A stretch of DNA of 64,000 bases. Origin: an uncultured Acetobacteraceae bacterium. GTDB lineage: Bacteria; Pseudomonadota; Alphaproteobacteria; Acetobacterales; Acetobacteraceae. The notes under the pieces are model-generated. The model did no database searches and was not told the origin of the DNA. It saw only the letters and a list, made by a program, of their open reading frames with translations. The DNA lies in the NCBI GenBank assembly GCA_964246015.1, contig CAXTPG010000011.1:357-64356 (forward strand), read 5' to 3'. Shown piece by piece: positions 8,341 through 33,026 of this stretch (position 1 is the first letter of the stretch; each line of letters begins with the position of its first letter). The translations under genes and the position numbers were made by a program.

Positions 8341-8373
8341 CCTTCAGGGCCGACCCGGTCGCTGCCGGACCAG

Positions 8374-18003: not shown

Positions 18004-18762
18004 TCAGTCCAATGCCGCGACCATCAGCTCCTCGCCCTGCAACCAGGCCTGGACGGCGCGGCCTTGCAGGGTGGGGCCGAGCTCGTCGGCGGTCTTGTAG
18101 ACGCCGTCGATGGCCAGCAGCTCGGCCTCGAGCCGCCGGCAGAAGATGCGGGGGCGTGCGCCGCCCGGGCCTGGCCCCAGCAGGCCGGCGATGGCCCGGC
18201 CGCGGAGCGTGCCATAGACATGGATGGACCCCCCGGCGATCACCTCGGACCCCGAGGCGACGCTGCCGATGATGGTGACGTCGCCGGCGGTGTGGGTGAC
18301 GCTCTGGCCGGAGCGGACGGGCTGGTCGAGGATGAGGGCGGAGGGTTCGGGGGGGCGCGGCGCCTCTGCGGGTTGGGCGGGGCGGGAAGGCTGGCCCGTG
18401 GGTTCGTTCTCGCCGACCAGGGCCGCGTTGCGGCCACCGGCCATGACGGGAGGAAGCTGGGCAGCCAGCGCGCCGAGGGCGTGGGGCATGGTGCCGTCGA
18501 TGCCGATCACGCGGATGCCGCGGGCGCCGAGGGCGGTGATCAGCGCCGGAAGATCGGCCTCGTGGCCGGTCAGGAGGGAAACGTCGAGCAGGACGGGGCG
18601 GCCCTCGAACACCTTGGGGGAGCGGGCGACCTGGTCGTCGAGCTGGGCGACCCAGGCGTCGAGCGGCAGGTCCGGCGTCAGGACGACGGACATGAAGGAC
18701 TTGCCGCGCAGGCGCAGGAACTGGCCGCGGGTGGCGGCGGGGCGTGTCTTGGTGCTCACCAT
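18004..18762 (-). CDS. minC: Septum site-determining protein MinC
   Basis: Real part of ORF 18004..19188, starting at MVSTKTRPA (ATG 18762-18760). Has the C-terminal beta-helix motif VRSGQSV...[29 protein letters not shown]. Confidence 0.9.
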
Positions 18763-18888
18763 CGACAGGGGGTACTCCGCGACTCGCCGGGGCGTCAACA
18801 AGATGCGCTTCGGGGCTTCTATCGTGGGGAACATTCCGGCTATCGTCGCGCGCGCATGGCCCGGTAGAGGCCCCAAGGGAGAACATCC

Positions 18889-20208
18889 ATGATCGATCGC
18901 CGCTCGTTGCTGGCTGCGTCCGCAGCCCTGCCCCTGTTCAATATCGTCGAGCGCGCGAACGCGCAGAGCCAGTTCGACTGGAAGCAGGCGAAGGGCGCCA
19001 AGATCGAGGTGAACCTCGCGAAGTCGCCGCGGGGCGACGTTGTGCAGGCGCACCAGAAGGAGTTCGAGGAGCTGACGGGGATCAAGGTCGGCAGCGAACA
19101 GATCCCGGAGCAGCAGCAGCGCCCGAAGGTGGCGATCGAGATGGCGTCGGGGCGGCCGAGCTTCGATGTCGTGAACGTCGCGATGCACGTGCAGAAGCGG
19201 CTGATCGAGAAGGGCCGCTGGATGGAGGATCTGCGGCCGATGATCCAGAACGCGGCGATCACGGCGCCGGGTCTGGACATGGCGGATTTCAGCCCGGCGA
19301 CGATGAAGGCGGCGACGGGGGCGGACGGAAAGCTGAACGTGCTGCCGTTCAACCAGGATCTGTTCATCCTATTCTACAACAAGGAATTGTTCGACCAGGC
19401 CGGGCTTTCGGTGCCGAAGACGTATGACGAGATGATGGCCGCGGCGATCAAGCTGACGGACAAGAGCAAGGGTGTGTTCGGGTTCACCGGGCGGGGCGTG
19501 AAGAACGCGAACGTCGTGCTGTACGACAACATCCTGCTGGGCTGGGATCAGGAGACGATCACGGCGGACGGCAAGACGCTGCTGACGGACACCCCGGCGG
19601 CGATCGAGGCGGCGACGTGGTACCAGAAGATCATGCGGGAGTGCGCGCCGCCGGGGTCGGTGGGGTTCAACTGGAACGAGTGCCAGACGACGTTCAGCCA
19701 GGGGCGGGCGGCGATGTGGTGGGACGGGATCGGGTTCTCGGCGCCGCTGGTGGATCCGTCGAAGTCGAAGATCGTGGGCAAGGTGGGGTTCGCGCCGGTG
19801 CCGATGGGCCCGAAGGCGCAGAACTCGTGCACGTTCATCGATGCGATCGGGATTCCGGCGGCGAGCAAGAACAAGACGGCGGCGTGGCTGTACGTGCAGT
19901 GGGCGACGAGCAAGACGATGTTCCCGAACTGGCTGAAGGTGGGCGCGGGGACCCCGCCGCGGGCGAGCAGCTATGGCGACCAGGAGATCGTGAAGGCGAG
20001 CGCGTTCCCGAAGGAGTGGTTCGACACGACGATCAAGAGCCTGGCGATCGCGCGGAGCGGGCTGCCGGAGATCGTCCCGGTGACGGAGTTCCGGGACACG
20101 ATCGGGGTTGCGCTGACGAACATCATCGGGGGCGCGGACCCGGCCAGCGAGATGAAGAAGGCGACGGAGGCGTTCCGGCCGGTGCTGGCGAAGGCGAACG
20201 AGGCCTGA
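18889..20208 (+). CDS. ABC transporter substrate-binding protein, family 1 (sugar type); no adjacent permease or ATPase
   Basis: 439 aa. Signal MIDRRSLLAASAALPLFNIVERANAQ. Typical carbohydrate SBP blocks are present (LFYNKELF, WNE...F..G.AAM, and W...P near the C-terminal lobe). Confidence 0.85.
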   Translation: MIDRRSLLAASAALPLFNIVERANAQSQFDWKQAKGAKIEVNLAKSPRGDVVQAHQKEFEELTGIKVGSEQIPEQQQRPKVAIEMASGRPSFDVVNVAMHVQKRLIEKGRWMEDLRPMIQNAAITAPGLDMADFSPATMKAATGADGKLNVLPFNQDLFILFYNKELFDQAGLSVPKTYDEMMAAAIKLTDKSKGVFGFTGRGVKNANVVLYDNILLGWDQETITADGKTLLTDTPAAIEAATWYQKIMRECAPPGSVGFNWNECQTTFSQGRAAMWWDGIGFSAPLVDPSKSKIVGKVGFAPVPMGPKAQNSCTFIDAIGIPAASKNKTAAWLYVQWATSKTMFPNWLKVGAGTPPRASSYGDQEIVKASAFPKEWFDTTIKSLAIARSGLPEIVPVTEFRDTIGVALTNIIGGADPASEMKKATEAFRPVLAKANEA

Positions 20209-20222
20209 CGGGGTAGAGGGGG

Positions 20223-20239
20223 GCCGGCGGGACGCCGGC
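20223..20239 (+). terminator. Short GC hairpin after the sugar SBP gene (no clear U-tract)
   Basis: gccggcg-gga-cgccggc, a 7-bp perfect stem located 15 nt after the stop at 20208. Confidence 0.3.
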
Positions 20240-20265
20240 GCTACGAGGGTGGCTTGCGTGTTGTT

Positions 20266-20300
20266 CCGGTTGATCCAAGAGTGCCGGGTGGATCAACCGG
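20266..20300. promoter_or_regulatory. Perfect 11-bp inverted repeat (13-nt spacer) immediately upstream of the GH2-like gene
   Basis: ccggttgatcc (20266-20276) and ggatcaaccgg (20290-20300). The right arm ends 9 nt before the GTG start at 20310. Confidence 0.35.
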
Positions 20301-20309
20301 GGATGGGGC

Positions 20310-22502
20310 GTGATCGGGGGCGAGGTACTGGAGGGGTGGCGCCGGCTGACGCCTGAGTATCCGGATGTGGACGGGCATGAGCATCGTTGGGTGCTGGATG
20401 TCTCTCTGCCGGCCGGGGGCGTGCTGGAGTTCCAGGGGCTGGCGACCTGGTGCGTCGTGCTGATCGACGGACGCGTGGTGGCGGAGCATCGGACGATGTT
20501 CCGGCCTTTGTTCGTGACGGTGCCGGCGGGGGGCGGGCGCGTGCTCGAGATTCGGAGCCTGGTGCTGGCGCCGGAGAGGGGCGGGCGGCGGGCGCGGTGG
20601 CGGAACCGGCTGGTGGCGGGGGAGTCGCTGCGCGGGGTCCGGACCACGCTGCTGGGGCGCATGGCCGGGACGGGGGCGGTCATCGCGGGGCCGTACCGGC
20701 CCGCGGTGCTGCATCGGGGCGGGGTGCGGCGGGCGGTGATGCGGGCGACGCTCGGGGATGGCGTGGGGGTTGTCGTGGTCCGGGTCAGCGGGGTGGCGGA
20801 GGGTGTCGTCGAGGCGTGCGGGCACTCTGTCGTGCTGCGGCAGGAGGGCGAGGCGCTGGTGGGGACGCTGCGCGTGCCCGATCCGCCGCTGTGGTGGCCA
20901 CACACGCATGGCACGCCGGCGCTGGTCGAGGTGCGGGGGGTGCTCGACGGCGAGGCGGTGGTGCTCGGGCGGGTCGGGTTCCGGACGATCGGGCGGGCGG
21001 CGGGGGCGGGGTTCGGGCCGGTCGTGAACGGGGTGCCGGTGTTCTGCCGGGGCGCGGTATGGATGGGGGGCGGGGCGGCGGCGCTGGAGCGGATGCGGGA
21101 CGCCGGGTTGAACATGGTGCGGGTGCCGGGGTTCACGGTGTATCCGGACCGCGCGTTCCTGGAGGCGTGCGACGCGCTGGGGGTGCTGCTGTGGCAGGAT
21201 TTCATGTTCTCGCGGTTCGATTACCCGGCGGATGAGGGGTTTCTCGCCGAGGCGGCGGCGGAGGCGGCGGGGTTCCTGGACGGGACGGCCGGGCACCCGT
21301 GCGTGGCGGTGCTGTGCGGGGGGGACGAGACGGTGCAGGCGGCCGTGATGGCGGGGCGGCCGGCGTCGGAATGGGGGCACGCGCTGTTCGATCGCGTGCT
21401 GGCCGGGGCGGCGGCGGCGGGGCGCCCGGATGTGCCCTATGTGACGAATGCTCCGTCGGGGGGGGAGTTGCCGATCGGCGGATCGGCGCCGGTTTCGCAT
21501 TTCTTCGGGGTGGGGGCGTATCTGCGGCCCTTGGCGGACGCGGCAGGGGTGCGGTTCGCGGCGGCGTGCCTCGCATTCTCCAACCCCGCGGACCCGGCGG
21601 GGTGCCGCGCGCTGTGCGGGGCGCCGGGGGATGGGGATTGGGCGGCGAGCGTGCCGCGGGACCCCGGGCTGTCCTGGACGTTCGAGGATGTGCGGGACCA
21701 CTACGTGGGGCGGCTGTTCGGCGCGGATGCGGCGGCGTTGCGGCGGACGGACCCCGAGGGCTGGCTCGCCGTGGGGCGGGCGGCGGTGGCGCTGGCGATG
21801 CAGTCGGCGATGTCGACCTGGCGGGCGGACCCGGCGTGCGGGGGCGCGCTGGTGCTGGCGTTGCAGGACCGGGTGGCGGGACCGGGGTGGGGAGTGCTGG
21901 ACCATCGGGGGCGGGCGAAGTCGGCGCTGCATGCGCTCGCGGCGGTGTGCCGGCCGGTGCAGGTACTGCTGCAGGACCGGGGGCTGGACGGGGTGGTCGT
22001 GCACCTCGTGAACGATACGGGGGAGGCACGGCGGTTGCGGCTGGTGGTGCGGGGGCTGAGTGAGGCGGGGATCGTCGAGGTGTTGGCGGACGCGGAGCAG
22101 GTGCTGGGCGCGCGCGCGGTGGCAACCGTGGCGGCGGCGGCGTTGATGGGCCGGTTTCGGGACTTGGTGGGTGCGTGGCGGTTCGGGACGCCGCCCTACG
22201 TCGTGCTGGGGGCAGCGCTGCTGGATGGGGAGACCATGATCTCGGAATCGGTGCTGTTTCCGCAGGGGCCGGCGTTGGGGACGGGGGATGTGGGGTTGGC
22301 GGCGAAGCTGGAGGCGGATGTGCTGACGGTCGCGGCGCGGGGGTTCGCGCAGTTCGTCGCGATCGACGACGAGGCGTGCGTGCCGGATATCGACCATTTC
22401 CATCTGTGGCCGGGGGAGGCGCGGCGGGTGCGGTTGTCGGGCGGCCGGCCGGGGGGGAGCGTGCGGGCGTTGAACGGGGTGGGGGCGGCGCACTACCGAT
22501 GA
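20310..22502 (+). CDS. Glycoside hydrolase family 2 (beta-mannosidase-like) protein, apparently lacking both catalytic glutamates
   Basis: 730 aa with a GTG start. GH2 blocks are present (LWWPH.HG.P, VNG.P.F.RG..W, LLWQDFMFS..DYP). The acid/base position reads VYPD instead of the remembered GGG.YE. The nucleophile block reads RFAAACLAFSNP instead of RF.SEFG.QS.P. Confidence 0.75.
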   Translation: MIGGEVLEGWRRLTPEYPDVDGHEHRWVLDVSLPAGGVLEFQGLATWCVVLIDGRVVAEHRTMFRPLFVTVPAGGGRVLEIRSLVLAPERGGRRARWRNRLVAGESLRGVRTTLLGRMAGTGAVIAGPYRPAVLHRGGVRRAVMRATLGDGVGVVVVRVSGVAEGVVEACGHSVVLRQEGEALVGTLRVPDPPLWWPHTHGTPALVEVRGVLDGEAVVLGRVGFRTIGRAAGAGFGPVVNGVPVFCRGAVWMGGGAAALERMRDAGLNMVRVPGFTVYPDRAFLEACDALGVLLWQDFMFSRFDYPADEGFLAEAAAEAAGFLDGTAGHPCVAVLCGGDETVQAAVMAGRPASEWGHALFDRVLAGAAAAGRPDVPYVTNAPSGGELPIGGSAPVSHFFGVGAYLRPLADAAGVRFAAACLAFSNPADPAGCRALCGAPGDGDWAASVPRDPGLSWTFEDVRDHYVGRLFGADAAALRRTDPEGWLAVGRAAVALAMQSAMSTWRADPACGGALVLALQDRVAGPGWGVLDHRGRAKSALHALAAVCRPVQVLLQDRGLDGVVVHLVNDTGEARRLRLVVRGLSEAGIVEVLADAEQVLGARAVATVAAAALMGRFRDLVGAWRFGTPPYVVLGAALLDGETMISESVLFPQGPALGTGDVGLAAKLEADVLTVAARGFAQFVAIDDEACVPDIDHFHLWPGEARRVRLSGGRPGGSVRALNGVGAAHYR

Positions 22503-24115
22503 TCCCGGTGGCGATCGAAAGCCCGGCCGGGGCGTGCTTCGGGACGTATCATGCGGCCGGCGGGGCGGCGTTGCTGATCCTGCCGCTATGGGGCTACGAG
22601 GCGCTTAGTACGTACCGGGTCTGGAGGGAGCTGGCGGATCGGCTGGCGGCCGGGGGGATCGCGGTGTTGCGTCTGGACTTGCCGGGGACGGGGGATTCGG
22701 CGGGCGTGGCGGAGATGGCGGACCCGGTCGGGGCGCACCGGGCGGCGGTGGATGCGGGGGTGGCGTGGCTTGCAGCGCGGCATGGGGCGGTTTCGATCCT
22801 GGGGGCGCGGTTCGGGGCGTTGCTGGCGGTGGATGCGGCGGGGCGCGGGGCTGCCGTGCGGTCGCTGGTGCTGCTGGATGCCCCGGCGGACGGGGCGGCG
22901 CTGGCGCGGCAGTTGCGGGCGCGGTCGCGGCTGGAACCGGGCGGGACGGAGGACCGGCGGGCCTACGGGGTGCCGCTCACGGATGCGATGCTGGCGGGGT
23001 TGGCGGGGTTGCCCGTGGCGCCGCAGGGACAGATGGAGACGCTGCTCATCGGGGAGGCGCAGGGACGGCCGCCAGCCTGGTCGGAGGGACTGCGGATCGT
23101 CGAGGCGGCGCCGTTCGAGGAGCGCGATGCGTTCGTGATGCGCGACAGTTTCCAGCGCATGGCCCCGGCTGCGGCGTTCGGCCGCGTCGTGGCGTTCCTC
23201 GCAGGCCGGGCCGGGACCGTGCCGGTGCCGGAGGTGGGGGCGGGCGCGCTGATCCTTCCGGGAATGCGGGAGGAGCCGGTGTGGTTCGGGCCCGGGTTGT
23301 TCGGCGTGCTGACGGTGCCCGATGGCGCGCCGCGGGGGGTCGCGGCGCTGATCCCGTCGACGGGGAACCTGCCGCGGAGCGGACCGGGGCGGGCGTCGGT
23401 GCTGCTGGCGCGGCGGCTTGCGGCGGCTGGTTTCGCGACGCTGCGGTATGATTGCGCGGGGGTGGGCGACAGCGAGGGCGCGATCCATGGCGACCCGGCC
23501 GTCGAGACCTACCTGCCGGAGCAGGTCGGGCATGTGGCGCTGGCGGTCAATGTGCTGGCGGGGCGGGGGTTCGGGCGGGTGGTCGTCGTCGGGCACTGCT
23601 CGGGGGCGTATCTGGGATGGCATGCGGCGGCGGGGAATGCGGGGATCGTGGGGGTGTTCGCGATCAACCTGCAGATCCTGAAGCGGATGGATGCGGCGGA
23701 CGCGGCGGCGACGGTTCGTCCGCATGGGACGCCGACTGGTTCGGCGGGTGCGGCGGAACCGCCCCGGGGTGGCGGACTGAAGGCGCTGGTGCGGCGGGCG
23801 TGTCCGCCCTGGTTGTGGGATTGGCTGCGGTCGATGACGGCGGAGGAGCGGGGGGTCCGGCGGCAGTTGCGGGGGTTGGTGCGGCGGGGGTGCCGGGTGC
23901 ATTTCGTGTTCGGGACGGAGGAGGACGAGCAGTACCGCTTCCACCGCGCGTTCGGGCGGCCGCCGCGGTTGCCCGCGGGGGCCGAGCTTACGGTGATCGA
24001 GGGGGCGGACCACATGTTCTCGGCCGCGCGGCACCGGACTCGGCTGCTCGATCTTGCGGCCGGGTTCGTGGCGTCGCATGACACGGGGGCAACGAGGGGT
24101 GGGGAGCGGGTGTGA
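22499..24115 (+). CDS. Fused tandem alpha/beta-hydrolase-fold protein (two domains; Arg and Cys at the nucleophile-elbow positions)
   Basis: ATG 22499 overlaps the GH2 stop (ATGA). Domain 1 has LRLDLPGTGDSAG and elbow ILGARFGALLA (22802-22816). Domain 2 has LRYDCAGVGDSEG and elbow VVGHCSGAYLG (23591-23605). Confidence 0.75.
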   Translation: MIPVAIESPAGACFGTYHAAGGAALLILPLWGYEALSTYRVWRELADRLAAGGIAVLRLDLPGTGDSAGVAEMADPVGAHRAAVDAGVAWLAARHGAVSILGARFGALLAVDAAGRGAAVRSLVLLDAPADGAALARQLRARSRLEPGGTEDRRAYGVPLTDAMLAGLAGLPVAPQGQMETLLIGEAQGRPPAWSEGLRIVEAAPFEERDAFVMRDSFQRMAPAAAFGRVVAFLAGRAGTVPVPEVGAGALILPGMREEPVWFGPGLFGVLTVPDGAPRGVAALIPSTGNLPRSGPGRASVLLARRLAAAGFATLRYDCAGVGDSEGAIHGDPAVETYLPEQVGHVALAVNVLAGRGFGRVVVVGHCSGAYLGWHAAAGNAGIVGVFAINLQILKRMDAADAAATVRPHGTPTGSAGAAEPPRGGGLKALVRRACPPWLWDWLRSMTAEERGVRRQLRGLVRRGCRVHFVFGTEEDEQYRFHRAFGRPPRLPAGAELTVIEGADHMFSAARHRTRLLDLAAGFVASHDTGATRGGERV

Positions 24116-24363
24116 CGGTCGATTCTGAGGGGACGGAGGGCGTGATGCGGACGCTGCTGGCCGAGGTGAATGTCGGGGGGGCGGGGCTGGGGGTGGATGA
24201 CGACCTGCCGGGGGCGGGGCTCACGTCGTTGAAGACGGTCGATCTGATGCTGGCGATCGAGGATCGGTTCGGGATCGAGTTTCCGGAGAAGCTGCTGAAC
24301 CGGCGGACGTTCGCGACGATCGGGAACCTGGTCGAGGCGGTGGAGGGGTTGCTGCCGCCATGA
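24112..24363 (+). CDS. Acyl/aminoacyl carrier protein
   Basis: 83 aa with GTG at 24112 overlapping the upstream stop; an alternative ATG lies at 24145. Phosphopantetheine-site context DLPGAGLTSLKTVDLMLAIEDRFGIEFP, with a four-helix-bundle-like pattern. Confidence 0.8.
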   Translation: MTVDSEGTEGVMRTLLAEVNVGGAGLGVDDDLPGAGLTSLKTVDLMLAIEDRFGIEFPEKLLNRRTFATIGNLVEAVEGLLPP

Positions 24364-25535
24364 CCGCATTGCCTCCGCGGGTATCGACGGTGCCGGCGGA
24401 GGCGCGGCGGATCGCGCGCGCGGTGGCGGCGCCGTTGGCGGGGGAGATCGACCGGGCGGGGCGGGTCCCGGCGGAGGCGATCGGGGCGTTGCGGGCGGCC
24501 GGGCTGCTGGGGGCGGCGGTGCCCCGGGCCATGGGGGGGCAGGGAGCCTCGATCCGCGATGTGGCGGCGGCGTGCTTCGAGCTGGGGCAGGCGTGCGCGT
24601 CGACGGCGATGGTGTTCGCGATGCACCAGATCCAGGTGGCGTGCCTGGTGCGGCATGGCGCGGACGACGCCTGGCAGGCGGGGTTCCTGCGGCGGGTGGC
24701 GACCGAGGGGCTGCTGCTGGCGAGCGGGACGACGGAGGGGGCGACCGGGGGCGACGTGGGCGCCAGCGATTGCGCGGTGGCGCAGGCGGACGGGGTGATC
24801 CGGCTGGAGAAGACCGGTTGCGTCATCTCGTACGGCGCCGTGGCCGACGCGGTGCTGATCACGGCCCGGCGGGCGGCGGATGCGGCACCGGGGGACCAGG
24901 TGCTGCTGGTGGCGGAACGCGGGCAGTTGGAGCTGCGGCAGACCGGCGGGTGGGACACGCTGGGGATGCGCGGAACGGACAGCCGGGGGTACGCACTGCG
25001 GGCGGCGTGCGGGCCGGACCAGGTGCTGCCTGTGGGGTATGGGATCATTTCCGCCGAGACGATGCTGCCAGTGTCGCACATCGTGTGGGCGTCGCTGTGG
25101 CTGGGGATCGCAACGGATGCGTGCGGGCGGGCGCGGGCGGCGGTGCGGGCGCGGGCGGCGCCGGGCCGGGTTCCGGGGGGTGCGGCGCGGCTGCGGGAGG
25201 CGGTGGCGGCGTTGCAGAGCCTGCGGGCGACGCTGATCGACGCGGTGGGGCGGTACGAGGCGGCGCTGGCGGAGCCGGAGCGGCTGGGATCGATCGGGTT
25301 CGGGCTGGCGATGAACGGGCTGAAGCTGCAGGCGAGCACGATGGCGGTGCAGGTGGTGGGGCAGGCGCTGCAGGCGGCGGGGCTTTCGGGCTACCGGAAC
25401 GACAGCCCGCACAGCGTGGGGCGGCACCTGCGGGACGCGCATTCGTCGATCCTGATGGTGGGCAACGACCGGATCGTCGCGAACAACGCCGGGCTGATGA
25501 CGGCGTGGCGGAGCGAGGAGGGGTTGTTCGAATGA
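24360..25535 (+). CDS. Acyl-CoA dehydrogenase family flavoprotein
   Basis: 391 aa. ACAD blocks are present: MHQ..V in the N-terminal helical region, GWDTLGMRGTDS in the middle beta domain, and a C-terminal helical domain with GYRNDSP..R..RD. ATGA overlaps at both ends. Confidence 0.85.
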   Translation: MTALPPRVSTVPAEARRIARAVAAPLAGEIDRAGRVPAEAIGALRAAGLLGAAVPRAMGGQGASIRDVAAACFELGQACASTAMVFAMHQIQVACLVRHGADDAWQAGFLRRVATEGLLLASGTTEGATGGDVGASDCAVAQADGVIRLEKTGCVISYGAVADAVLITARRAADAAPGDQVLLVAERGQLELRQTGGWDTLGMRGTDSRGYALRAACGPDQVLPVGYGIISAETMLPVSHIVWASLWLGIATDACGRARAAVRARAAPGRVPGGAARLREAVAALQSLRATLIDAVGRYEAALAEPERLGSIGFGLAMNGLKLQASTMAVQVVGQALQAAGLSGYRNDSPHSVGRHLRDAHSSILMVGNDRIVANNAGLMTAWRSEEGLFE

Positions 25536-26425
25536 GTTTCCGGGACGCGCTGATCGAGGCTGGCGTGATGGTGCCCAGCCCGGCGCAAGGCGTGGTGGCG
25601 TGGTCCGGGGCGTTCCAACGCGTGGTGGACGGGCTGGACCGACTGCTGGACCAGGAGTCGGCCCGGCGGGGGATGGAGGTGATGCGGTTTCCGCCGGTGA
25701 TGCCGCGCAGCCATTTCGAGGCGAGCGGCTACATGAAGAGCTTCCCGCAGTTCGCCGGCACGATCCACTGCTTCTGCGGCAGCGAGGCGGATCATCGGAC
25801 GCTGCTGCGGTGCATGTCGGCCGGGGAGGATTGGAGCGGGCATCAGGCGGCCACCGAGGTCGTGCTGACGCCGGCGTGCTGCTATCCGCTGTATCCGGTG
25901 CTGGGGCGGCGGGGGACGCTGCCGGCGGGGGGGGTGACGGTCGATATCGCGTCGTGGTGCTACCGGGAGGAGCCATCGGACGATCCGGCGCGCATGCGGA
26001 GTTTCCGGCTTCGGGAGTTCGTGCGCGCGGGGTCCGCCGCGGAGGTCGCGGCGTTCCGCACGGAATGGATGGGGCGGGGGATGGCGGTCGCGGCGGCGCT
26101 GGGGCTGGAGGCGGAGTTGGAGGTGGCGAACGACCCGTTCTTCGGGCGGCCAGGGGTGCTGCGGGCGGGGATGCAGCGGGAAGAGGAAGCGAAGTTCGAG
26201 CTGGTGATCACGACGGGGGGGCCGAAGGGCACGGCGTGCGCGAGCTTCAACGACGCGAAGGATCTGTTCGGCGGGCTGTTCGGGATCGTGCAGGCGGACG
26301 GGGCGGTCGCGCGGACGGGGTGCGTGGGGTTCGGGATGGAGCGGATGACGCTGGCGCTGTTCCATCGGCATGGCATGGACCCCGGGGCGTGGCCGGGTTC
26401 GGTGCGGGATGCATTGAGCCTGTGA
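25532..26425 (+). CDS. Amino acid--[acyl-carrier-protein] ligase (truncated class II aaRS / methanogen-type SerRS catalytic-core homologue)
   Basis: 297-aa part of ORF 24572..26425, starting at MSFRDALIEAG. Class II core only, with no tRNA-binding arm. Motif 2-like WCYREEPSDDPARMRSFRLREF, motif 3-like GCVGFGMERM, and conserved Cys (PACCYP) consistent with a Zn site. Confidence 0.8.
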   Translation: MSFRDALIEAGVMVPSPAQGVVAWSGAFQRVVDGLDRLLDQESARRGMEVMRFPPVMPRSHFEASGYMKSFPQFAGTIHCFCGSEADHRTLLRCMSAGEDWSGHQAATEVVLTPACCYPLYPVLGRRGTLPAGGVTVDIASWCYREEPSDDPARMRSFRLREFVRAGSAAEVAAFRTEWMGRGMAVAAALGLEAELEVANDPFFGRPGVLRAGMQREEEAKFELVITTGGPKGTACASFNDAKDLFGGLFGIVQADGAVARTGCVGFGMERMTLALFHRHGMDPGAWPGSVRDALSL

Positions 26426-27324
26426 TGTTTCCGGCGCCGGGGACGATCGGGCTGCACCGGCTGAACGGGCCGGAGCGGACGTGGCCCGAGACGAACTGCT
26501 ACATGGATCTGTGGATCGGGCTGCTGCATGCGGCGGGGCGGGACCCGTTGCCGCTGATGGGCGCGGCGGCCGGCATGGCGTGGGAGGGGGACCACTTCAC
26601 CTTCATCAAGCCGAGTGCGGGGGATTTGTTCGCGCTGGCGGGGATCGTGCTGCAGGAGCTGCCGCTGTGGGACGGGATGGAGGGCCACGTCGCGACGCAG
26701 GTGGCGCGGGGGGCGGTGCCGATGCCGGAGGTGGATGGGCGGTTCCTCGAAGATTGCGGGCGGCTGGGGACGAAGACGTCGATCGGGATCGTGGCGATCG
26801 ACCGGGGGGGGCGGACGCTGGACTACGTGCACAATGGCGGGCTGCACCGGGTTTCAGGCGACGACTATGCGGGGGTGCTGTGCCTGCCGCCGCACGAGAC
26901 GCCGCTGGTGCCTTATTGCGAGCTGGCGCGGTTCTCGGCGCATCAGCCTGCGGACGTGCGGGCGGCGGCGCGGGGCGTGCTGGCGCAGAACGTTGCGATG
27001 CGGGGGGAGGGGAACCCTGTGCTGGGCTTCGCTGCGGCGCTGCCGGGGTTGATGGAGGGGCGGGGGGAGAAGGTGCACCTGCTGTGCTTCAACACGGCGC
27101 GGCAGTTGGGCTCGGGGTTCGGGCTGCTGGCGGACCACCTGGTGTGGCTTGGGGCGGACCCGGGGCCTGCGGTGCGGCTGTCGGACCAGGCGAAGACGTT
27201 CCAGTTCCAGATGGCGCGGGCGACGCGGCGGGGCCGGTGGGATGCGGCGCTGGGGACGGGGCTGGAGGAGATGGCGGCGAGCTGGGCGGCGGTGGATGCG
27301 GTGGTGGCGGGGGTTTGCTCGTAG
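26425..27324 (+). CDS. DUF1839-like protein (function unknown)
   Basis: 299-aa part of ORF 25600..27324, starting at MFPAPGTIGLHRLNG; the start shares 1 nt with the ligase stop (TGATG). The motif WPETNCYMDLWIGLLHAAGRDP and the length fit my recollection of the DUF1839 family that accompanies these ligases. Confidence 0.6.
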   Translation: MFPAPGTIGLHRLNGPERTWPETNCYMDLWIGLLHAAGRDPLPLMGAAAGMAWEGDHFTFIKPSAGDLFALAGIVLQELPLWDGMEGHVATQVARGAVPMPEVDGRFLEDCGRLGTKTSIGIVAIDRGGRTLDYVHNGGLHRVSGDDYAGVLCLPPHETPLVPYCELARFSAHQPADVRAAARGVLAQNVAMRGEGNPVLGFAAALPGLMEGRGEKVHLLCFNTARQLGSGFGLLADHLVWLGADPGPAVRLSDQAKTFQFQMARATRRGRWDAALGTGLEEMAASWAAVDAVVAGVCS

Positions 27325-27369
27325 GGACTTCGGGGCGCTCGATGGCGGCGGGTGAGGGGTGGGCGGCAT

Positions 27370-27396
27370 GGTGGAATGCCGGAGGGGCATTCCACC
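27370..27396 (+). terminator. Perfect 11-bp stem / 5-nt loop hairpin after the operon end (REP-like; no U-tract)
   Basis: ggtggaatgcc-ggagg-ggcattccacc, 46 nt after the stop at 27324. Related in sequence to the hairpin at 30133-30159. Confidence 0.4.
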
Positions 27397-27481
27397 GCAC
27401 GGGGTTTGCCGCGTTGTCGTGCTTGCCAGGGGTTTCTTCGTGCCGCTAGTGTCGCGCTGCAACATGTATGGGTGGTAGGAC

Positions 27482-28465
27482 ATGACGGGCCTCTCGCGAC
27501 GCTCTGCACTTTCTGCCGGTCTTGGGATGGCGCTGTTGCCGGGGGCGCGGGCGATCGCGGCGCCGGGGGCGTTGCCAAGCCGGGTCGAGCTGATCGTGGG
27601 GCATGCGAAATCGGCGCATACGTGCCCGTTGTCGGCGGTGCCGGAGATGCTGAAGCCGCTGGGCGTCGATATCAAGTTCGTCGAGTTCATCCGGTACGCG
27701 GATGCCCGGACGGCGATCGGGAGCGGGTCGGTCGATATCGCGACGACGGCGCCGGGGGATATCCTGGTGCTGCTGTCGCAGGGGGTGACCAGCGTGAAGG
27801 CGGTCACCGGGGTCGGCAGCTCCAAGAAGTTCGTGATGGCGAAGAAGGCATCGGACATCCCGAACTGGGACGCGCTGCGGGGCAAGCGGCTGGGGATCCC
27901 CGCGGGTTCGGCGGTGTGGGCGCAGTATGCGGCCTCGGTGACGGAGCGGAACTTCCCGTACGACGCGCCGAAGGTGATCAACATCCAGGGCGGCGGCCCG
28001 AGCTTCATCCAGGCGTTGCAGCGCGGCGACGTCGACGCGGTGCTGAGCTGGCAGCCGTTCGAGTCCGTGATGCTGGTGGAGAAGACCGGCGAGTTCACGC
28101 CGCTGGAGTACGGGGACAGCAAGGCGGTGGGCGGCGAGCTGGGAATGTTCGCGGCCACGATCAACGCGCTGACGGCGAAGCGGGAGGCGCTGAACCGGTT
28201 CTTCTGGGCCTATGCGACGGTCGAGAAGCAGTTGCTGGGCGATCGGGCGGCGTTCGCGAAGGCGATCGCGGCGTATACCGGGGTCGCGGAGCCGATCGCG
28301 GCCAGCATCTCGGAGAACGTGAAGCTGGGGGGCGTGCTGAGCCTGGAGCAGTTGCAGCGGCAGGCGAAGTTCTTCCATGACATGGGCGTGCTGCAGAAGG
28401 ACGTGAGCGGGCAGGTCGCCGGGTTCTGGGACAACAGCCCGATGCGGGACGCGGCGTCCGCATGA
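27482..28465 (+). CDS. ABC transporter substrate-binding protein, NitT/TauT (nitrate/sulfonate/taurine) family
   Basis: 327 aa. Tat-like signal MTGLSRRSALSAGLGMALLPGARA, followed by the typical periplasmic-binding-protein type 2 pattern. Confidence 0.85.
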   Translation: MTGLSRRSALSAGLGMALLPGARAIAAPGALPSRVELIVGHAKSAHTCPLSAVPEMLKPLGVDIKFVEFIRYADARTAIGSGSVDIATTAPGDILVLLSQGVTSVKAVTGVGSSKKFVMAKKASDIPNWDALRGKRLGIPAGSAVWAQYAASVTERNFPYDAPKVINIQGGGPSFIQALQRGDVDAVLSWQPFESVMLVEKTGEFTPLEYGDSKAVGGELGMFAATINALTAKREALNRFFWAYATVEKQLLGDRAAFAKAIAAYTGVAEPIAASISENVKLGGVLSLEQLQRQAKFFHDMGVLQKDVSGQVAGFWDNSPMRDAASA

Positions 28466-29325
28466 GTGCCGCCGCCTGCCAGGTCGGGACCAGGCCGGCG
28501 GTTGTCGCCGCCCCGCGTGCGCCCCGGCGGGGCGCCGGCGCGGTCGAGACGTTGCAGCTCTTCGTCGTGCCCCTGGTGCTGCTGGGCGCGTGGGAGGCGT
28601 GCGGGCAGTTGGAGCTGATCCCGTCGGGCCTGCTGCCGCCGCCGTCCAAGGTGTTGCAGGGGTGGTGGACCTGGGCGTTCGGCCCGGCGCGGGGAAGCCT
28701 GGCCCCCTATAGCGGGACGTGGCTGGCGAACGTCGCGTTCTCGTCGGACCGCGTGCTGCGGGGGTATGCGCTGGCGATCGCGCTGGGGGTGCCGTTCGGG
28801 CTGCTGATCGGGTGGTCGCGCGTGATGGCGCGGCTGTTCGACCCGCTGACGCAAAGCCTGCGGCCCATCCCGATCACGGCGTGGCTGCCGTTCTCGATCT
28901 CTCTGTTCGGGATCGGGGAATTCGGGTCGTTGTTCCTGATCATGCTGGGGGCGTTCTATCCGATCGTCGTGAACGCGACGCACGGGGCGCGGGACATCAA
29001 CAAGAACCTGGTTCGGGCCGCGCTGATGATGGGGGCGCGGCCGCGGGACGTGCTGCTGCGGGTGGTGCTGCCGAACGCGATGCCGGCGATCTTCACGGGG
29101 ATGCGGATCGGCCTGGGGATCGCGTGGACCGCGGTGATCGTGAGCGAGATGGTCGCCGTGAAGTCGGGGCTGGGGTACGTGCTGTGGGACGCGTACTACG
29201 TGGGCCGGATGGATGTGGTGCTGGCCGACATGGTCTCGATCGGCGTGCTGGGGTTCATCAGCGACCGGCTGCTGCTGCTGGTGCAGGGCCGGGTGCTGCG
29301 CTGGAAACACTTCCATTCCGTTTGA
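28462..29325 (+). CDS. ABC transporter permease, NitT/TauT family
   Basis: 287 aa. EAA-like loop (ALMMGARPRDVLLRVVLPNAMP). ATGA overlap with the SBP gene. Confidence 0.9.
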   Translation: MSAAACQVGTRPAVVAAPRAPRRGAGAVETLQLFVVPLVLLGAWEACGQLELIPSGLLPPPSKVLQGWWTWAFGPARGSLAPYSGTWLANVAFSSDRVLRGYALAIALGVPFGLLIGWSRVMARLFDPLTQSLRPIPITAWLPFSISLFGIGEFGSLFLIMLGAFYPIVVNATHGARDINKNLVRAALMMGARPRDVLLRVVLPNAMPAIFTGMRIGLGIAWTAVIVSEMVAVKSGLGYVLWDAYYVGRMDVVLADMVSIGVLGFISDRLLLLVQGRVLRWKHFHSV

Positions 29326-29338
29326 GGGCGCCACGGAC

Positions 29339-30112
29339 ATGCAGCCAGCCGTCGAGATGGTGGGCGTGCAGAAGGTCTATGCGGGGCGGAGCGGGCCGGT
29401 GCAGGCGCTGTCCGCCATCGATTTCACCATCGCGGACCGGGAGTTCGCGGTGCTGCTGGGACCCTCCGGGTGCGGCAAATCGACGCTGCTGAACCTGCTG
29501 GCGGGGTTCGAGGCGGCGACGGGCGGGCATGTGCGGGTGTTCGGGTCGGAGGTGGCGCAGCCGGGCCCGGACCGGGCGGTGGTGTTCCAGGAGGCGGCGC
29601 TGTTCCCGTGGTTGAGCGTGTTCGAGAACGTGGCGTTCGCGCTGCGGCTGAAGGGGACGGCGCGGCGGGAGATCGATGCGCAGGTGCGGCGGACGCTGAC
29701 GCAGGTGGGGCTCGATCAGTTCGCGGATGCCTTGCCGGACCAGTTGTCGGGCGGGATGAAGCAGCGGGTGGGGATCGCGCGGGCGCTGGTGATGGAGCCG
29801 CGGGTGCTGCTGATGGACGAGCCGTTCGGGGCGCTGGACGCGCAGACCCGGCTGTCGATGCAGGAGCTGCTGCTGGGGGTGTGGGAGAAGCAGCGGAAGA
29901 CGGTGCTGTTCATCACCCACGATATCGACGAGGCGATCCTGCTGGCGGACACGCTGTATGTGATGTCGGCCCGGCCGGGACGGATCAAGGCGCGGATCCC
30001 GGTGGAGCTGCCGCGGCCGCGGAACCTGGAGATGTTGTCGAGTGCGGAGTTCAATCCGTTGCGGCGAGAGATCATGCATCTGATCCGCGAGGAGCATGTC
30101 GCTGCCCATTAG
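29339..30112 (+). CDS. ABC transporter ATP-binding protein, NitT/TauT family
   Basis: Internal ATG at 29339, beginning [14 protein letters not shown]. Walker [10 protein letters not shown], signature LSGGMKQRV, Walker B LLMDEPF. Confidence 0.9.
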
Positions 30113-30132
30113 GCGGCGTTCTTACGTGGAAT

Positions 30133-30159
30133 GGTGCAGTGCCGTCGGGGCATTGCACC
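30133..30159 (+). terminator. 11-bp stem (one G-U pair) / 5-nt loop hairpin, REP-like
   Basis: ggtgcagtgcc-gtcgg-ggcattgcacc, 21 nt after the stop at 30112. Shares GGTG..(A/G)TGCC / GGCATT..CACC with the hairpin at 27370-27396. Confidence 0.35.
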
Positions 30160-30192
30160 CTACGTCGCGTTGATTCTGTTCGGAGTCCGACC

Positions 30193-31659
30193 ATGCCAGT
30201 GATCCGTAATGCACCGCCGAAGTTCGATGAGAGCGTGCCTGTCGTCGTCGTGGGCGGGGGGGCGTGCGGCATGACGGCGGGGCTGGCGGCGGCGGATGCC
30301 GGGGCGGACGTGCTGGTGCTGGAGCGGGATGCGAAGCCCTTCGGCAGCACGGGGATGTCGCAGGGCTTCATCTGCGCGGCAGGCACGCGGCTGCAGCGGG
30401 ATGCGGGGATCGAGGACGCGCCGGAGATCATGCTGGCGGACATCATGGCCAAGACCCGCGGGCAGACCGACCCGGCGCTCGCCCGGACCATTGCATACGA
30501 GTCGGGGCCGACGATCGACTTCCTGACCGAGACGCATGGGCTGCCGTTGCGGGTCGATTCCGACTGGCGGGGGGATTTCGGGCATACGCGGCGGCGGATG
30601 CACGGCACGCCGCACTCGGACGGGGAGGAGCTGCTGACGCTGATCCGCGGCGCGGCGGAGGCCCGGGGCGCGATGGTGATGACGGGCGCCCGCGTGTCGG
30701 ACGTGTATGCGGACGACAGCGGACGGGTGCTGGGGGTGGGCGTCGATCGGCCCGACGGCCGGCGGGAGACGATCGGGTGCGAGGCGCTGGTGCTGGCGAC
30801 GTGCGGCTTCGGGGGCAACCACGCGATGGTGCGGCAGTTCATCCCGGAGATGGCGGACAGCCCCTACCATGGGCATGAGGGCAACAAGGGCGACGGCATC
30901 CTGTGGGGGATGGAGCTGGGCGCGGCCACGGGCGACATGGGGGCGTTCCAGGGATACGGCGCGCTCGCCGAGCCGCATGGCGTGCTGTTCAACTACAACA
31001 TCATCATGGAGGGCGGGATCCAGGTGAACCGGCTGGGGGAGCGGTTCTCCAACGAGTTGGCGGACATCTCGGGCCAGGGGCCGAAGGTGTGCGCGCAACC
31101 GGAGAACACGGCGTTCGCGGTGTACGACGACCGGCTGCATGCGTGGGGAAGCCACCTGCGCGAGTACAAGCAGTTGATCGAGCTGGGTGCGATCCGGTCG
31201 GCGCCGGACGCGGAGTCGCTGGCTGCGCTGCTGCGGGTGCCGGCGGAGGCGTTGGCGCGGACCCTGCACGACGTGGCGGAGATGGCGGCGGGGCGGATGG
31301 CGGATCCGTGGGGGCGGGACTTCACGAAGCATCAGCCGCTGCAGGCGCCGTATCGGGCGGTGCGGGTGAAGGGCGCGCTGTTCCATACGCAGGGGGGGCT
31401 GGAGATCGACGGCCAGGCGCGGGTGCGGCGGGCGGACGGGGGTCTGCTGCCGAACCTGTATGCGGGCGGCGGCGCGGCGCGGAGCATTTCGGGACCGGGG
31501 GTGTGGGGCTACCTGCCGGCGGCCGGGCTGTGCATGGCGGTGACGCTGGGGCGGCTGGCGGGTCAGGCGGCGGCGCGGCAGGTGGTGCGCCGGGCCAGTG
31601 CGGCGGAGGGAGCGGGTTCAGGGGGGCGGCGCGCATGGGCGGCGGTCTTCCGACGCTGA
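30193..31659 (+). CDS. FAD-binding dehydrogenase (fumarate reductase/succinate dehydrogenase flavoprotein-like family)
   Basis: Internal ATG at 30193, beginning MPVIRNAPPKFDESVPVVVVGGGACGMTAGLAAADAGADVLVLER (a GxGxxG dinucleotide fold). C-terminal LYAGGG motif. Confidence 0.8.
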   Translation: MPVIRNAPPKFDESVPVVVVGGGACGMTAGLAAADAGADVLVLERDAKPFGSTGMSQGFICAAGTRLQRDAGIEDAPEIMLADIMAKTRGQTDPALARTIAYESGPTIDFLTETHGLPLRVDSDWRGDFGHTRRRMHGTPHSDGEELLTLIRGAAEARGAMVMTGARVSDVYADDSGRVLGVGVDRPDGRRETIGCEALVLATCGFGGNHAMVRQFIPEMADSPYHGHEGNKGDGILWGMELGAATGDMGAFQGYGALAEPHGVLFNYNIIMEGGIQVNRLGERFSNELADISGQGPKVCAQPENTAFAVYDDRLHAWGSHLREYKQLIELGAIRSAPDAESLAALLRVPAEALARTLHDVAEMAAGRMADPWGRDFTKHQPLQAPYRAVRVKGALFHTQGGLEIDGQARVRRADGGLLPNLYAGGGAARSISGPGVWGYLPAAGLCMAVTLGRLAGQAAARQVVRRASAAEGAGSGGRRAWAAVFRR

Positions 31660-33026
31660 CCGAGGGATTGGCGGGGATCGCGGCCCGGCCCGTCGATGCG
31701 GGCACCCGGCGGCGGGCGGCGCTGCACGTGCTGGACTGGATCGGGTGCGCGTCGCTGGGGTTGCAATCCCCGGCCGGGGAGAAGCTGGCGCGGTTCGCGC
31801 GGGCGCAGGGGGCGGGGCCTTGCCTGGCGCTGGGCGCCGGGCGGTTGGCGCCGTCGGGGGCGATCCTGGTGAATGGCGGCATCGGGAACGTGCTGGAGAT
31901 GGACGACACGCACCGCGTGGCCATGCTGCATCCGGGACCCGTGGTGGTGCCGGCGGCGCTGGCGGCGGCGGAGCAGGTGGGGGCGTCCGGGCCCGCGCTG
32001 CTGGATGCGGTCGTGCGGGGCTACGAGGTCATGATCCGGATCGGGTGCGCGCTGGGGCCGGCGCATTACCGGATGTTCCACAACACGGCGACCTGCGCGC
32101 CGTTCGGGGCGGCGGCGGCGGTGGGGTCGTTGCTGCGGCTGTCGATCGGGGCGATGGTCGACGCGCTGGGGAATGCGGGGACGCAGGCGGGCGGGCTGTG
32201 GCAGTGCCGGCATTCGGAGACGATGACGAAGCAACTGCACAACGGCCGGGCGGCGCAGTCGGGATGGCTGAGCGCGATGCTGGCCGCGGACGGGTTCACG
32301 GGACCCCCGGCGATCCTGGAGGGGGAGCAGGGGTTCTTCGCCGCGCTGTGCCCGGATGCGACGCCCGAGGCGGTGCTGGCGGACGCCGAGGGCGCGTGGC
32401 GGATCGGGGAGGTGAGCTTCAAGCCCTACCCGGCGTGCCGGCATGCCCATGCGGTGATCGACGCGGCGCTGGCGGTGCGGGACGCGCATCCGGAGGCGGT
32501 GGGCGCGGCGGACGAGGTCGTCGTGACGACGTATGCCTCGGCGGTGGATTTCTGCGACGACGCGGCGCCCGACACGCCGGCGCGGGCGCGGTTCAGCCTG
32601 CAGCACGCGGCGGCGGTGACGCTGCTGGACGGGTCGCCGTGGCTGGCAGCGTTCGAGGCGGAGACGATCGGGCGGGCGGATGTGGCGGACCTGCGGCGGC
32701 GGGTCCGGCTGGTGGTCGACTCCGGATGGGGGCATGCGCAGCCGCCGCGCTTCCGGGCGGTGGTGGAGCTGCGGCGCGGGACGGCGGTGCTGGCCCGGGC
32801 GGAGGTGCTGGATGCCAAGGGGGATCCCGCGAACCCGATGCAGGTGACGGAGGTCGGGGCCAAGGCGGCGGCGTTGATGCAGGCCGCCGGGCTGTATGGC
32901 ACGGCCGCGGCGCGCATCCAGTCCGCCTGCGCCGCCCTCGTCGACGGGGGTGACGTCTGTGCCGTCACCGATGCGCTCGCCTCGCTTCGCCTGCCCAGCG
33001 CCGCGCCTCGTTTGAAGCACGCCTGA
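31635..33026 (+). CDS. MmgE/PrpD family protein (2-methylcitrate dehydratase-like)
   Basis: Internal ATG at 31635, overlapping the upstream gene by 25 nt. PrpD-family blocks are present: LDWIGCA, NG..G..LE.DD.H in the loop, and KPYP.C...H. Confidence 0.8.
   Translation: MGGGLPTLTEGLAGIAARPVDAGTRRRAALHVLDWIGCASLGLQSPAGEKLARFARAQGAGPCLALGAGRLAPSGAILVNGGIGNVLEMDDTHRVAMLHPGPVVVPAALAAAEQVGASGPALLDAVVRGYEVMIRIGCALGPAHYRMFHNTATCAPFGAAAAVGSLLRLSIGAMVDALGNAGTQAGGLWQCRHSETMTKQLHNGRAAQSGWLSAMLAADGFTGPPAILEGEQGFFAALCPDATPEAVLADAEGAWRIGEVSFKPYPACRHAHAVIDAALAVRDAHPEAVGAADEVVVTTYASAVDFCDDAAPDTPARARFSLQHAAAVTLLDGSPWLAAFEAETIGRADVADLRRRVRLVVDSGWGHAQPPRFRAVVELRRGTAVLARAEVLDAKGDPANPMQVTEVGAKAAALMQAAGLYGTAAARIQSACAALVDGGDVCAVTDALASLRLPSAAPRLKHA

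Follow-up and report, generated by a model that had tools for sequence, protein, structure and literature searches.

What does a cell need an amino acid:[carrier protein] ligase for? Enzymes of this type are a textbook case of an aminoacyl-tRNA synthetase (aaRS) recruited away from translation, and the question is raised here by an operon of six genes located at positions 20310-27324 on the + strand of a 64,000-nucleotide stretch from an uncultured Acetobacteraceae bacterium (assembly GCA_964246015.1, contig CAXTPG010000011.1). This whole stretch is referred to as the window in the following. The six genes, numbered g1 to g6 in 5′ to 3′ order (Table 1), encode a GH2-like protein, a fused double alpha/beta-hydrolase, a carrier protein, a flavoprotein of the acyl-CoA dehydrogenase (ACAD) fold, the ligase and a DUF1839 protein. 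The operon is a typical copy of a known, widespread and still orphan six-gene system and does not represent a new kind of system. Its gene content points to a cytoplasmic, thiotemplated transfer of an aminoacyl group to a sugar-type acceptor, which would proceed independently of non-ribosomal peptide synthetases (NRPS) and be catalyzed by the DUF1839 protein; taken as a whole, this scheme is given an even chance of being right.

The first step of the scheme is carrier loading. The original prediction had read g5 as a tRNA-independent homolog of seryl-tRNA synthetase (SerRS) acting as an amino acid:[carrier protein] ligase, and this reading was borne out. The protein exceeds the cut-off of the NCBIfam equivalog model NF005479 (409.5 bits against 357, covering profile positions 21-316 of 318), whereas models of SerRS itself match residues 110-294 only, at model positions 311-504 of 518 and with 37-45 bits. 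An alignment with the structures of Bll0957 (PDB 3mey, 4h2w) extends over 280 residues at E 1e-75, and a methanogen-type SerRS aligns at E 2e-10. By ancestry, g5 belongs with methanogen-type SerRS; it consists of the class II aaRS catalytic core, the N-terminal tRNA-binding domain being absent. In an alignment of 13 diverse homologs, C117, E162 and C264 of g5 are invariant, with C117 falling at chain residue 151 of 4h2w_A as counted in the alignment. These three residues presumably correspond to C131, E176 and C279, which we take to be the Zn ligands of Bll0957, with a His-tag presumably accounting for the offset in numbering. The possibility that g5 is a fragment of an ordinary SerRS or a pseudogene was ruled out, since the protein is full-length with respect to NF005479 and its active-site residues are conserved.

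The carrier g3 is encoded two genes upstream of the ligase. It matches the phosphopantetheine-binding family PF00550 at E 1.8e-8, scores 71.4 bits with NF005480, just under the cut-off of 72, and shows weak NCBIfam matches to DltC. Its best matches in the PDB, each at E ~5e-10, are Atu2571 (2jq4) and 4h2w_C, a chain crystallized together with Bll0957 and named "Aminoacyl carrier protein," and the phosphopantetheine site Ser39 is invariant among the aligned relatives. Judged from these comparisons, the assignment of g5 as an amino acid--[carrier protein] ligase is genuine, with g3 as its dedicated carrier, and this part of the scheme is almost certainly right. In 2010, Mocibob and co-workers reportedly found that truncated SerRS homologs from Bradyrhizobium and Agrobacterium load Gly or Ala on carriers and not on tRNA.

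Conservation of the genes as a set had been named beforehand as one of the points on which the original prediction could fall. For this analysis, one genome per species was scanned, yielding at least 586 ligase loci, the best 80 of which were kept and combined with nine loci from metagenome and genome contigs. Within these 89 loci, a sample rich in Rhizobiaceae whose raw counts overstate independence, five of the six genes, namely those for the carrier, the ACAD-like protein, the ligase, the DUF1839 protein and the GH2-like protein, were found together in 88, so that the objection of missing co-conservation clearly falls away. The single exception is a plasmid contig of Rhizobium grahamii (pRg502a, L058), in which a short fragment of the GH2-like gene is present at ~11941-12120 and the other four genes are intact. 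The five-gene set extends across Rhizobiales and Burkholderiales, and besides Rhizobiaceae its intact form was seen in Acetobacteraceae and in Sphingomonas, Methylobacterium, Methylovirgula, Brucella, Paraburkholderia and Pararobbsia; in Rhizobiaceae the cluster is chromosomal and near-ubiquitous. Two architectures could be distinguished. Rhizobiaceae and most other members have the order carrier, ACAD-like, ligase, DUF1839, GH2-like, while GH2-like, hydrolase, carrier, ACAD-like, ligase, DUF1839 is the order in the window, in L002 (a metagenome-assembled genome (MAG) of Acetobacteraceae) and in L085-L089. The exact six-gene order of the window occurs in 6 of 89 loci, and L001 shows the second architecture without the hydrolase gene.

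With regard to the operon itself, all six reading frames are open and end in a single terminal stop. The overlap of start and stop codons at every junction, as claimed before, matches the sequence exactly in all five cases: ATGA at 22499-22502, GTGA at 24112-24115, ATGA at 24360-24363, ATGA at 25532-25535 and TGATG at 26423-26427. Likewise, all six domain assignments made from the letters alone were confirmed by Pfam, NCBIfam, PDB sequence comparison and structure models. Public gene calls for the same 64,438-bp contig are identical for g1, g2, g4, g5, g6 and the upstream 439-aa solute-binding protein (SBP), but differ in the start of g3, which is called with 72 aa from an internal ATG by NCBI/ENA and with 83 aa by Logan. 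Relatives without a Met at the internal position share the N-terminal extension; the 83-aa start, and with it the GTGA junction, is therefore preferred. The gene calls of L085 show the same overlap pattern (4, 4, 4, 4, 1 nt), and in L087, L088 and L089 overlaps occur at three to five of these junctions; this repetition implies that the overlaps are more than chance. A consensus scan of 18500-28600 found no promoter-like sites and terminator-like sites at chance level, and carries no information on transcript boundaries; G+C content in the window is 68-75%. No signal peptide or membrane-span-like segment was found in any of the six operon proteins, all of which look cytoplasmic.

A gene neighborhood of this kind has been described before. 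In a note in proof, Aravind and colleagues (PMC2922099, 2010) reported this SerRS paralog to be linked to the carrier, a redox enzyme, Atu2574 (a highly conserved protein not characterized before), a glycosidase and lipopolysaccharide-related genes, and predicted that an amino acid is joined to a sugar of the cell surface at an amino group. Formation of the amide was ascribed to Atu2574 in this proposal, with the redox enzyme probably being a monooxygenase, while a non-ribosomal peptide reading was argued against (PMC2922099). The novelty ascribed to the gene set in the original prediction was therefore overrated, since both the neighborhood and the hypothesis of sugar acylation had already been published. 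The ligase-carrier characterization of 2010 is summarized in PMC9437257. Compared with these systems, the window operon resembles Bll0957/Bsr0959 of Bradyrhizobium and Atu2573/Atu2571 of Agrobacterium (Mocibob et al. 2010, 2013) both in the ligase, at the E-value given above, and in the carrier, as g3 matches both solved carriers; moreover, the order carrier, ACAD-like, ligase, DUF1839 is the same in the rhizobial Bll0957/Atu2573 loci. Identity between g5 and the rhizobial ligases is ~50-54%. Unlike in the rhizobial systems, however, the GH2-like and hydrolase genes lead the operon of the window instead of trailing it, the hydrolase gene lies inside the operon, and the nucleophile of the GH2-like protein has been lost.

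The proposed transfer step would be catalyzed by g6, a full-length member of DUF1839. An independent study (PMC10318531, 2023) places this family among the papain-like proteins on account of a C-(T/S)-H triad and guesses at a role in the processing of cell-wall glycans. An AlphaFold2 (AF2) model of g6 built from 38 homologs (predicted local distance difference test score (pLDDT) 94.6, predicted template modeling score (pTM) 0.92) is bipartite, with an alpha/beta region at residues 1-170 and helices at 178-298. When this model was compared with the PDB using Foldseek, the only full-length matches were CtaG, AziU3/U2 and CcbD, with template modeling (TM) scores of 0.55-0.65 and E-values of 1e-6 to 1.5e-3. 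CtaG ranked first (TM 0.64, E 1.4e-6), AziU3/U2 reached 0.60 and CcbD 0.55-0.60, whereas papain-like proteins of the ordinary type reached only ~0.2. Cys25 and His136 of g6 are invariant in alignments of 18 and of 38 sequences, as are D147 and K117, with T118 being invariant in the 18-sequence set; the spacing of Cys25 and His136 is similar to that of Cys11 and His128 in CtaG.

CtaG, which acts in closthioamide biosynthesis, is a bipartite, papain-like, carrier-protein-dependent ligase that uses a Cys11-His128-Asp144 triad in a ping-pong mechanism, and its homologs include AsbE and BtrH, the latter being named as a homolog of the CtaG fold (PMC12865890). CcbD and LmbD likewise follow a ping-pong mechanism, with catalytic residues of the Cys-His-acid type, in which the amino acid goes from the carrier to the Cys and from there to an amino sugar, whose amino group accepts it (PMC12945683). 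One of these two transacylase papers (PMC12865890 or PMC12945683) does not mention DUF1839. With the carriers CcbZ and LmbN, the CcbD/LmbD systems perform the type of reaction that had been predicted for Atu2574 in 2010, and the fold likeness to g6 extends over the full length. They differ in that an NRPS A domain loads the carrier and a thiooctose serves as acceptor, and identity to g6 is 12-13%. CtaG, although being the best structural match, shares only 7-9% identity with g6 and uses two carriers, one for the donor and one for the acceptor, whereas the window operon encodes one. At the level of sequence, a search of the PDB with g6 alone gave nothing but noise, and Pfam at E up to 10 returned PF08893 alone and no similarity to BtrH_N. 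As a consequence, the claim made here is that DUF1839 has the same fold and works like these enzymes, not that it belongs to their family; on the basis of the model, g6 shares the fold of CtaG and CcbD and probably their type of chemistry. A carrier-bound thioester as donor and an amine as acceptor are predicted for g6 from its genomic linkage to the carrier, whose gene accompanies that of DUF1839 in all 89 loci.

Less clear-cut is the chemistry of g4. Its membership in the ACAD family, as claimed in the original prediction, stands: the N domain (E 3e-17), the C domain (E 3.8e-10) and, under its cut-off, the M domain (E 1.4e-3) were found with Pfam, and residues 16-374 align with the SCAD structure 7p98 at E 3e-20. 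The accompanying analogy to prolyl-S-peptidyl carrier protein (PCP) dehydrogenases, on the other hand, is weak, since g4 lacks the catalytic Glu, and it reaches 31 bits with the corresponding model, which has a cut-off of 650. The position which we take to be that of the Y-E-G motif reads M366-V367-G368 in g4 (family consensus "MIS"). The helix-G position of IVD-type enzymes, which we place by eye near E232, offers no substitute in this family, as E232 is not conserved and the consensus residue is Q. Both observations speak against g4 being a true alpha,beta-dehydrogenase. The weak NCBIfam matches of g4 comprise dehydrogenases as well as the ACAD-fold monooxygenases SfnB, DszC, HsaA and nitrososynthases, and close relatives also match Acyl-CoA_dh_2. 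Judged from its sequence, g4 is at least as likely to be an oxidase or hydroxylase as a dehydrogenase. A literature search for the PDB codes 5Z8T and 5GJ7, which refer to ACAD-type-2 structures, gave no result.

For g1, no Pfam match at E below 0.01 was obtained, and its assignment comes from comparison with the PDB. A single-sequence phmmer search identified 5n6u at E 3e-26; a profile of the GH2-like family aligned over positions 13-730 with residues 95-812 of the same structure at E 1e-77, and with the Bacteroides enzyme BtMan2A over its full length at E 1.5e-72. At the N terminus, g1 is ~70-90 aa shorter than homologs of 800-823 aa. The motifs CGNNE and RFMSE of BtMan2A presumably contain its catalytic residues Glu462 (acid/base) and Glu555 (nucleophile). 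The acid/base Glu is kept in g1 (E340 in CGGDE) and conserved in every locus aligned there, but the nucleophile Glu is replaced by A419 in RFAAAC. Among the loci aligned at this second position, 82 have Glu and five have Ala, the latter being L001, L085, L086 and L087, which form the clade of the window, and L038. Because of this loss, g1 is unlikely to be a working retaining glycosidase. Such a natural Glu-to-Ala variant of a GH2 protein provides a handle on the question whether the glycosidase-like partner needs catalysis.

In g2, two alpha/beta domains are recognizable in the AF2 model (pLDDT 89.3). According to the alignments, the N-terminal half has a degenerate nucleophile elbow (GARFG) and no conserved nucleophile, while in the C-terminal half a G-x-C-x-G motif (C367) and His505 are both invariant; the invariance of D504 is limited to a 13-sequence alignment. 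A Cys nucleophile in this half suits thioester chemistry. Neither fold search nor PDB sequence matches provided a functional lead, as both returned generic esterases and lipases, in the fold search with one domain each. The best NCBIfam matches are hydr2_PEP for the N-terminal and hydr1_PEP for the C-terminal half (E 3e-18 and 2e-19, both sub-threshold). Membership of g2 among the exosortase A-associated hydrolases 1 and 2 was rejected, since the scores lie far under the curated cut-offs of TIGR03100 (69.7 bits against 168.45) and TIGR03101 (66.3 against 202.75). Among the 88 complete loci, 55 have the double hydrolase gene at a distance of at most 10 kb, and a fusion of the two halves was found in 42 of 43 cases. 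In two Rhizobium loci (L011, 14422-17784; L019, 15820-19131), the gene directly after the GH2-like gene encodes a protein of ~1,100 aa in which an N-terminal Polysacc_synt_3 domain (Wzx-like flippase) is fused to a C-terminal double hydrolase with the same best NCBIfam matches, hydr2_PEP and hydr1_PEP. An open reading frame (ORF) of the same length, ~1,100 codons, was found in 14 further loci.

The combination of these components has counterparts in several known pathways. The side chain of butirosin, 4-amino-2-hydroxybutyrate (AHBA), depends on the carrier BtrI, the ligase BtrJ, BtrK, the monooxygenase BtrO/V and the transacylase BtrH, which acts on a sugar amino group. The logic shared with the window operon comprises a stand-alone carrier, a non-NRPS ligase, tailoring by a flavoenzyme and a papain-like Cys transacylase. 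The butirosin pathway, which belongs to a specialized antibiotic cluster, differs in having an ATP-grasp ligase and an oxygenase that is not of the ACAD fold, and its acceptor pathway is encoded adjacently, whereas the window operon is not accompanied by an acceptor pathway. The gene set associated with exosortase A (EpsH1) consists of an acyl carrier protein, an AMP-forming ligase and hydrolases 1 and 2. It has in common with the window operon a carrier and a ligase together with two alpha/beta-hydrolase units and a polysaccharide context; however, the two units are fused in g2, and the ligase is of another type. In DltABCD and AlmEFG, a carrier-loaded amino acid is esterified to an envelope glycopolymer or glycolipid (D-Ala on teichoic acids and Gly on Vibrio lipid A, respectively). 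This likeness is a functional analogy only, as these systems use ligases of the ANL family and MBOAT/DltD or LpxL-like transferases unrelated to DUF1839, and have neither a flavoenzyme nor a GH2 partner.

Taken together, the aminoacyl transfer to a sugar-type acceptor would proceed as follows. Using ATP, the Zn-dependent ligase g5 would activate a small amino acid, Gly or Ala in the studied homologs, and esterify it to the phosphopantetheine on Ser39 of g3, a step well supported by homology. The tethered aminoacyl group may then be oxidized or hydroxylated by g4 in a reaction other than classical alpha,beta-dehydrogenation. Cys25 of g6 would subsequently take over the acyl group in a ping-pong reaction like that of CcbD, BtrH and CtaG, to which the likeness in fold points, and would hand it on to a free acceptor with an amine (or hydroxyl) group, for which an amino sugar or a lipid-linked glycan unit is the most likely candidate. 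The GH2-like protein might bind or trim the glycoside, and in the clade of the window it would probably be a non-hydrolytic glycan-binding partner. For g2, the Cys-His half may be another enzyme that handles thioesters, functioning as an acyltransferase or as a proofreading thioesterase. A glycan as acceptor had already been considered in the original prediction, and this idea gains support from the universal presence of the GH2-like partner, from the fold of DUF1839, which is like that of CcbD, and from flippase fusions and polysaccharide neighbors in some loci; the independent prediction in PMC2922099 points in the same direction. Such neighbors comprise genes for GT4, GumK-like and Wzz proteins in L083, GT2 in L084, and GT2, Bac_transf and Polysacc_synt in L088.

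Several points weigh against this scheme. The predicted link between DUF1839 and transacylation stands at the level of the fold only, and a profile of the DUF1839 family found no match among PDB sequences at E up to 10. AziU3/U2, one of the three structural neighbors of g6, is not known to be a transacylase. The reaction catalyzed by g4 is undefined, and none of the six genes encodes a flavin reductase. With the nucleophile gone, the "glycosidase" part does not apply literally to g1 of the window. Given the apparently cytoplasmic location of all six proteins, modification of a surface glycan would have to take place on its precursor. Polysaccharide genes adjoin the cluster in only some of the loci whose flanks were inspected, and no glycosyltransferase or amino-sugar genes are located in or beside the operon of the window. 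Finally, experimental backing within the family is confined to carrier loading, and a 2022 review still calls the biological function served by amino acid:[carrier protein] ligases unknown, in agreement with the original prediction, which had held the product to be undefined.

As a further argument for a glycan, the original prediction had pointed to the sugar SBP just upstream. A carbohydrate-type SBP is indeed encoded there; it has a twin-arginine (Tat)-like leader (MIDRRSLL) and sub-threshold NCBIfam matches to carbohydrate SBPs, and no permease genes adjoin it. Its link to the cluster, however, was found in the closest clade only. Besides the window, the gene is present in just two loci, L086 (3027-4346) and L087 (1693-3014), in both of which it directly precedes the GH2-like gene, and a role as general partner of the system was ruled out for this reason. 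The SBP is a clade-specific accessory and not core evidence for a glycan acceptor. While the SBPs of these loci are 90-92% identical to that of the window, the cluster proteins are only 46-73% identical. This contrast reflects either a stronger constraint on the SBP or a cluster that diversifies or is exchanged, as is often the case in surface-polysaccharide loci. The other tested genes flanking the operon in the window (ParA-like, downstream transporter, FAD and PrpD) have no match in L086 and L087.

An extended version of the sugar-acceptor scheme can be put forward tentatively. In this version, the operon would encode a complete minimal thiotemplated machine for glycan aminoacylation, in which DUF1839, as a hitherto unrecognized branch of the CtaG/CcbD class, loads a flavoenzyme-modified Gly or Ala onto the amino sugar of a lipid-linked polysaccharide precursor, the GH2-like protein serves glycan recognition, being a natural pseudo-glycosidase without nucleophile in the clade of the window, and the Cys-His hydrolase couples the modification to flipping of the Wzx type.

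The main rival to envelope decoration is a small diffusible product, for instance an N-acyl amino sugar, a pseudo-dipeptide or a compound with a signaling or chelating function. DUF1839 would in this case join the acyl group on the carrier to a free amine, in the way known from BtrH, AsbE and CcbD in secondary metabolism. The experimentally known structural neighbors of g6 all belong to natural-product pathways, the six proteins are soluble and cytoplasmic, no polysaccharide genes are found near the cluster in the window or in L089, and the occurrence of an SBP with the cluster in the closest clade would fit the uptake of a precursor or product. Nevertheless, genes for an exporter, for additional tailoring or for a scaffold are absent from the conserved core, and its universal partner is GH2-like. 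Other members of the family show Wzx-like fusions and neighbors from polysaccharide loci, and a chromosomal and near-ubiquitous occurrence in Rhizobiaceae is more like that of an envelope housekeeping function. On balance, a small-molecule product appears rather unlikely.

A minimal assembly of non-ribosomal peptides, which corresponds to the original suggestion of 2010, would have DUF1839 form amide bonds between carrier-bound units in the manner of CtaG. The top match of g6 does couple two carrier-bound substrates, and the ligase-carrier pair mimics an A-T didomain. Each operon, however, contains a single carrier and a single ligase, and no conserved condensation, ATP-grasp or second carrier gene was found in the loci inspected. 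The GH2-like partner is hard to place in such an assembly line as well, and peptide formation was already disputed in PMC2922099, so that this explanation is considered improbable. In a catabolic or repair/salvage function, an imported, SBP-bound aminoacylated glycoside would be dismantled by the GH2-like and hydrolase proteins, and its amino acid moiety would be recycled or detoxified by ligase, carrier and ACAD-like protein. This reading is suggested by the position of the genes for SBP, GH2-like protein and hydrolase, which form the 5′ end in operons of the window type, and by a sugar ABC transporter and GFO/IDH/MocA oxidoreductases flanking the cluster in L082, but appears highly improbable given that ATP-driven loading on a dedicated carrier is a hallmark of biosynthesis, no nucleophile is present in the GH2-like protein of the window, the N-terminal hydrolase half is catalytically degenerate and the SBP is linked in one small clade only.

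Table 1. Coordinates and assignments of the operon genes and neighboring features in the window.
Feature	Position	Strand	Description	Basis
g1	20310..22502	+	GH2 beta-mannosidase-like, 730 aa, GTG start, cytoplasmic (predicted)	PDB match 5n6u
g2	22499..24115	+	Fused double alpha/beta-hydrolase, 538 aa	Pfam, NCBIfam, AF2 model
g3	24112..24363	+	Aminoacyl carrier protein, 83 aa, Ser39 in GLTS	PF00550
g4	24360..25535	+	ACAD-fold flavoprotein, 391 aa	Pfam Acyl-CoA_dh_N, M, C
g5	25532..26425	+	Amino acid--[carrier protein] ligase, 297 aa	NF005479
g6	26425..27324	+	DUF1839 protein, 299 aa, predicted carrier-protein-dependent transacylase	PF08893 E 1.7e-65
SBP	18889..20208	+	Periplasmic carbohydrate-type solute-binding protein, 439 aa	SBP_bac_1 E 3e-41
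Inverted repeat	20266..20300	.	Perfect 12 nt CCGGTTGATCCA / TGGATCAACCGG, 11-nt spacer	
Downstream genes	27482-33026		SsuA/TauA-like binding protein, permease, ATPase, then FAD_binding_2 and MmgE/PrpD-family proteins	

Between the SBP gene and the operon lies an inverted repeat that ends 10 nt before the GTG start of g1 and is a possible operator or 5′ mRNA hairpin. The intergenic regions of L086 and L087, the two closest loci, do not share this repeat, and it is therefore not claimed as a regulatory element. On the other side, a gap of 157 nt separates the operon from an ABC transporter of the sulfonate/taurine type; neither the transporter nor the FAD_binding_2 and MmgE/PrpD genes that follow are conserved with the cluster in other loci. 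In L082, a contig of Rhizobium rhizogenes (5368-8201), and L083, a MAG labeled Arenimonas (5553-8369), both of which come with gene calls, the operon is adjoined by efp and by genes for an EpmA-like (tRNA-synt_2) and an EpmB-like radical SAM protein. The EpmA-like neighbor represents a second aaRS-derived system of non-translational aminoacylation beside the operon, which is probably a matter of lineage synteny.

Regarding the window as a whole, the GC skew is unusually strong and its sign switches near 36 kb, from +0.06 to +0.30 before to -0.05 to -0.27 after this position (2-kb windows). The cumulative GC skew has its peak there, which could indicate a terminus-like switch or a change in the dominant gene orientation. 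The single match reported by ARAGORN, a 101-nt tRNA-Tyr with anticodon ATA at 4211-4311, falls into a high-GC3 ORF of 1,346 codons that runs on the opposite strand, and is in all likelihood spurious. A search against Rfam found nothing in the window.

With respect to the family, the points to carry forward are the fold-level link of DUF1839 to CtaG and CcbD, the Cys hydrolase together with its flippase fusions, the ACAD-like protein without a catalytic Glu and the GH2-like protein without a nucleophile. By way of the five-gene core and the first three of these features, an old guess from gene neighborhoods takes the shape of a specific reaction scheme open to experimental testing. If the operon indeed encodes a machine for glycan aminoacylation, this would settle the question, standing since 2010, of what amino acid:[carrier protein] ligases are for. 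If, furthermore, the product is a decoration of envelope glycans in rhizobia and agrobacteria, it may have a bearing on surface recognition between plants and microbes.

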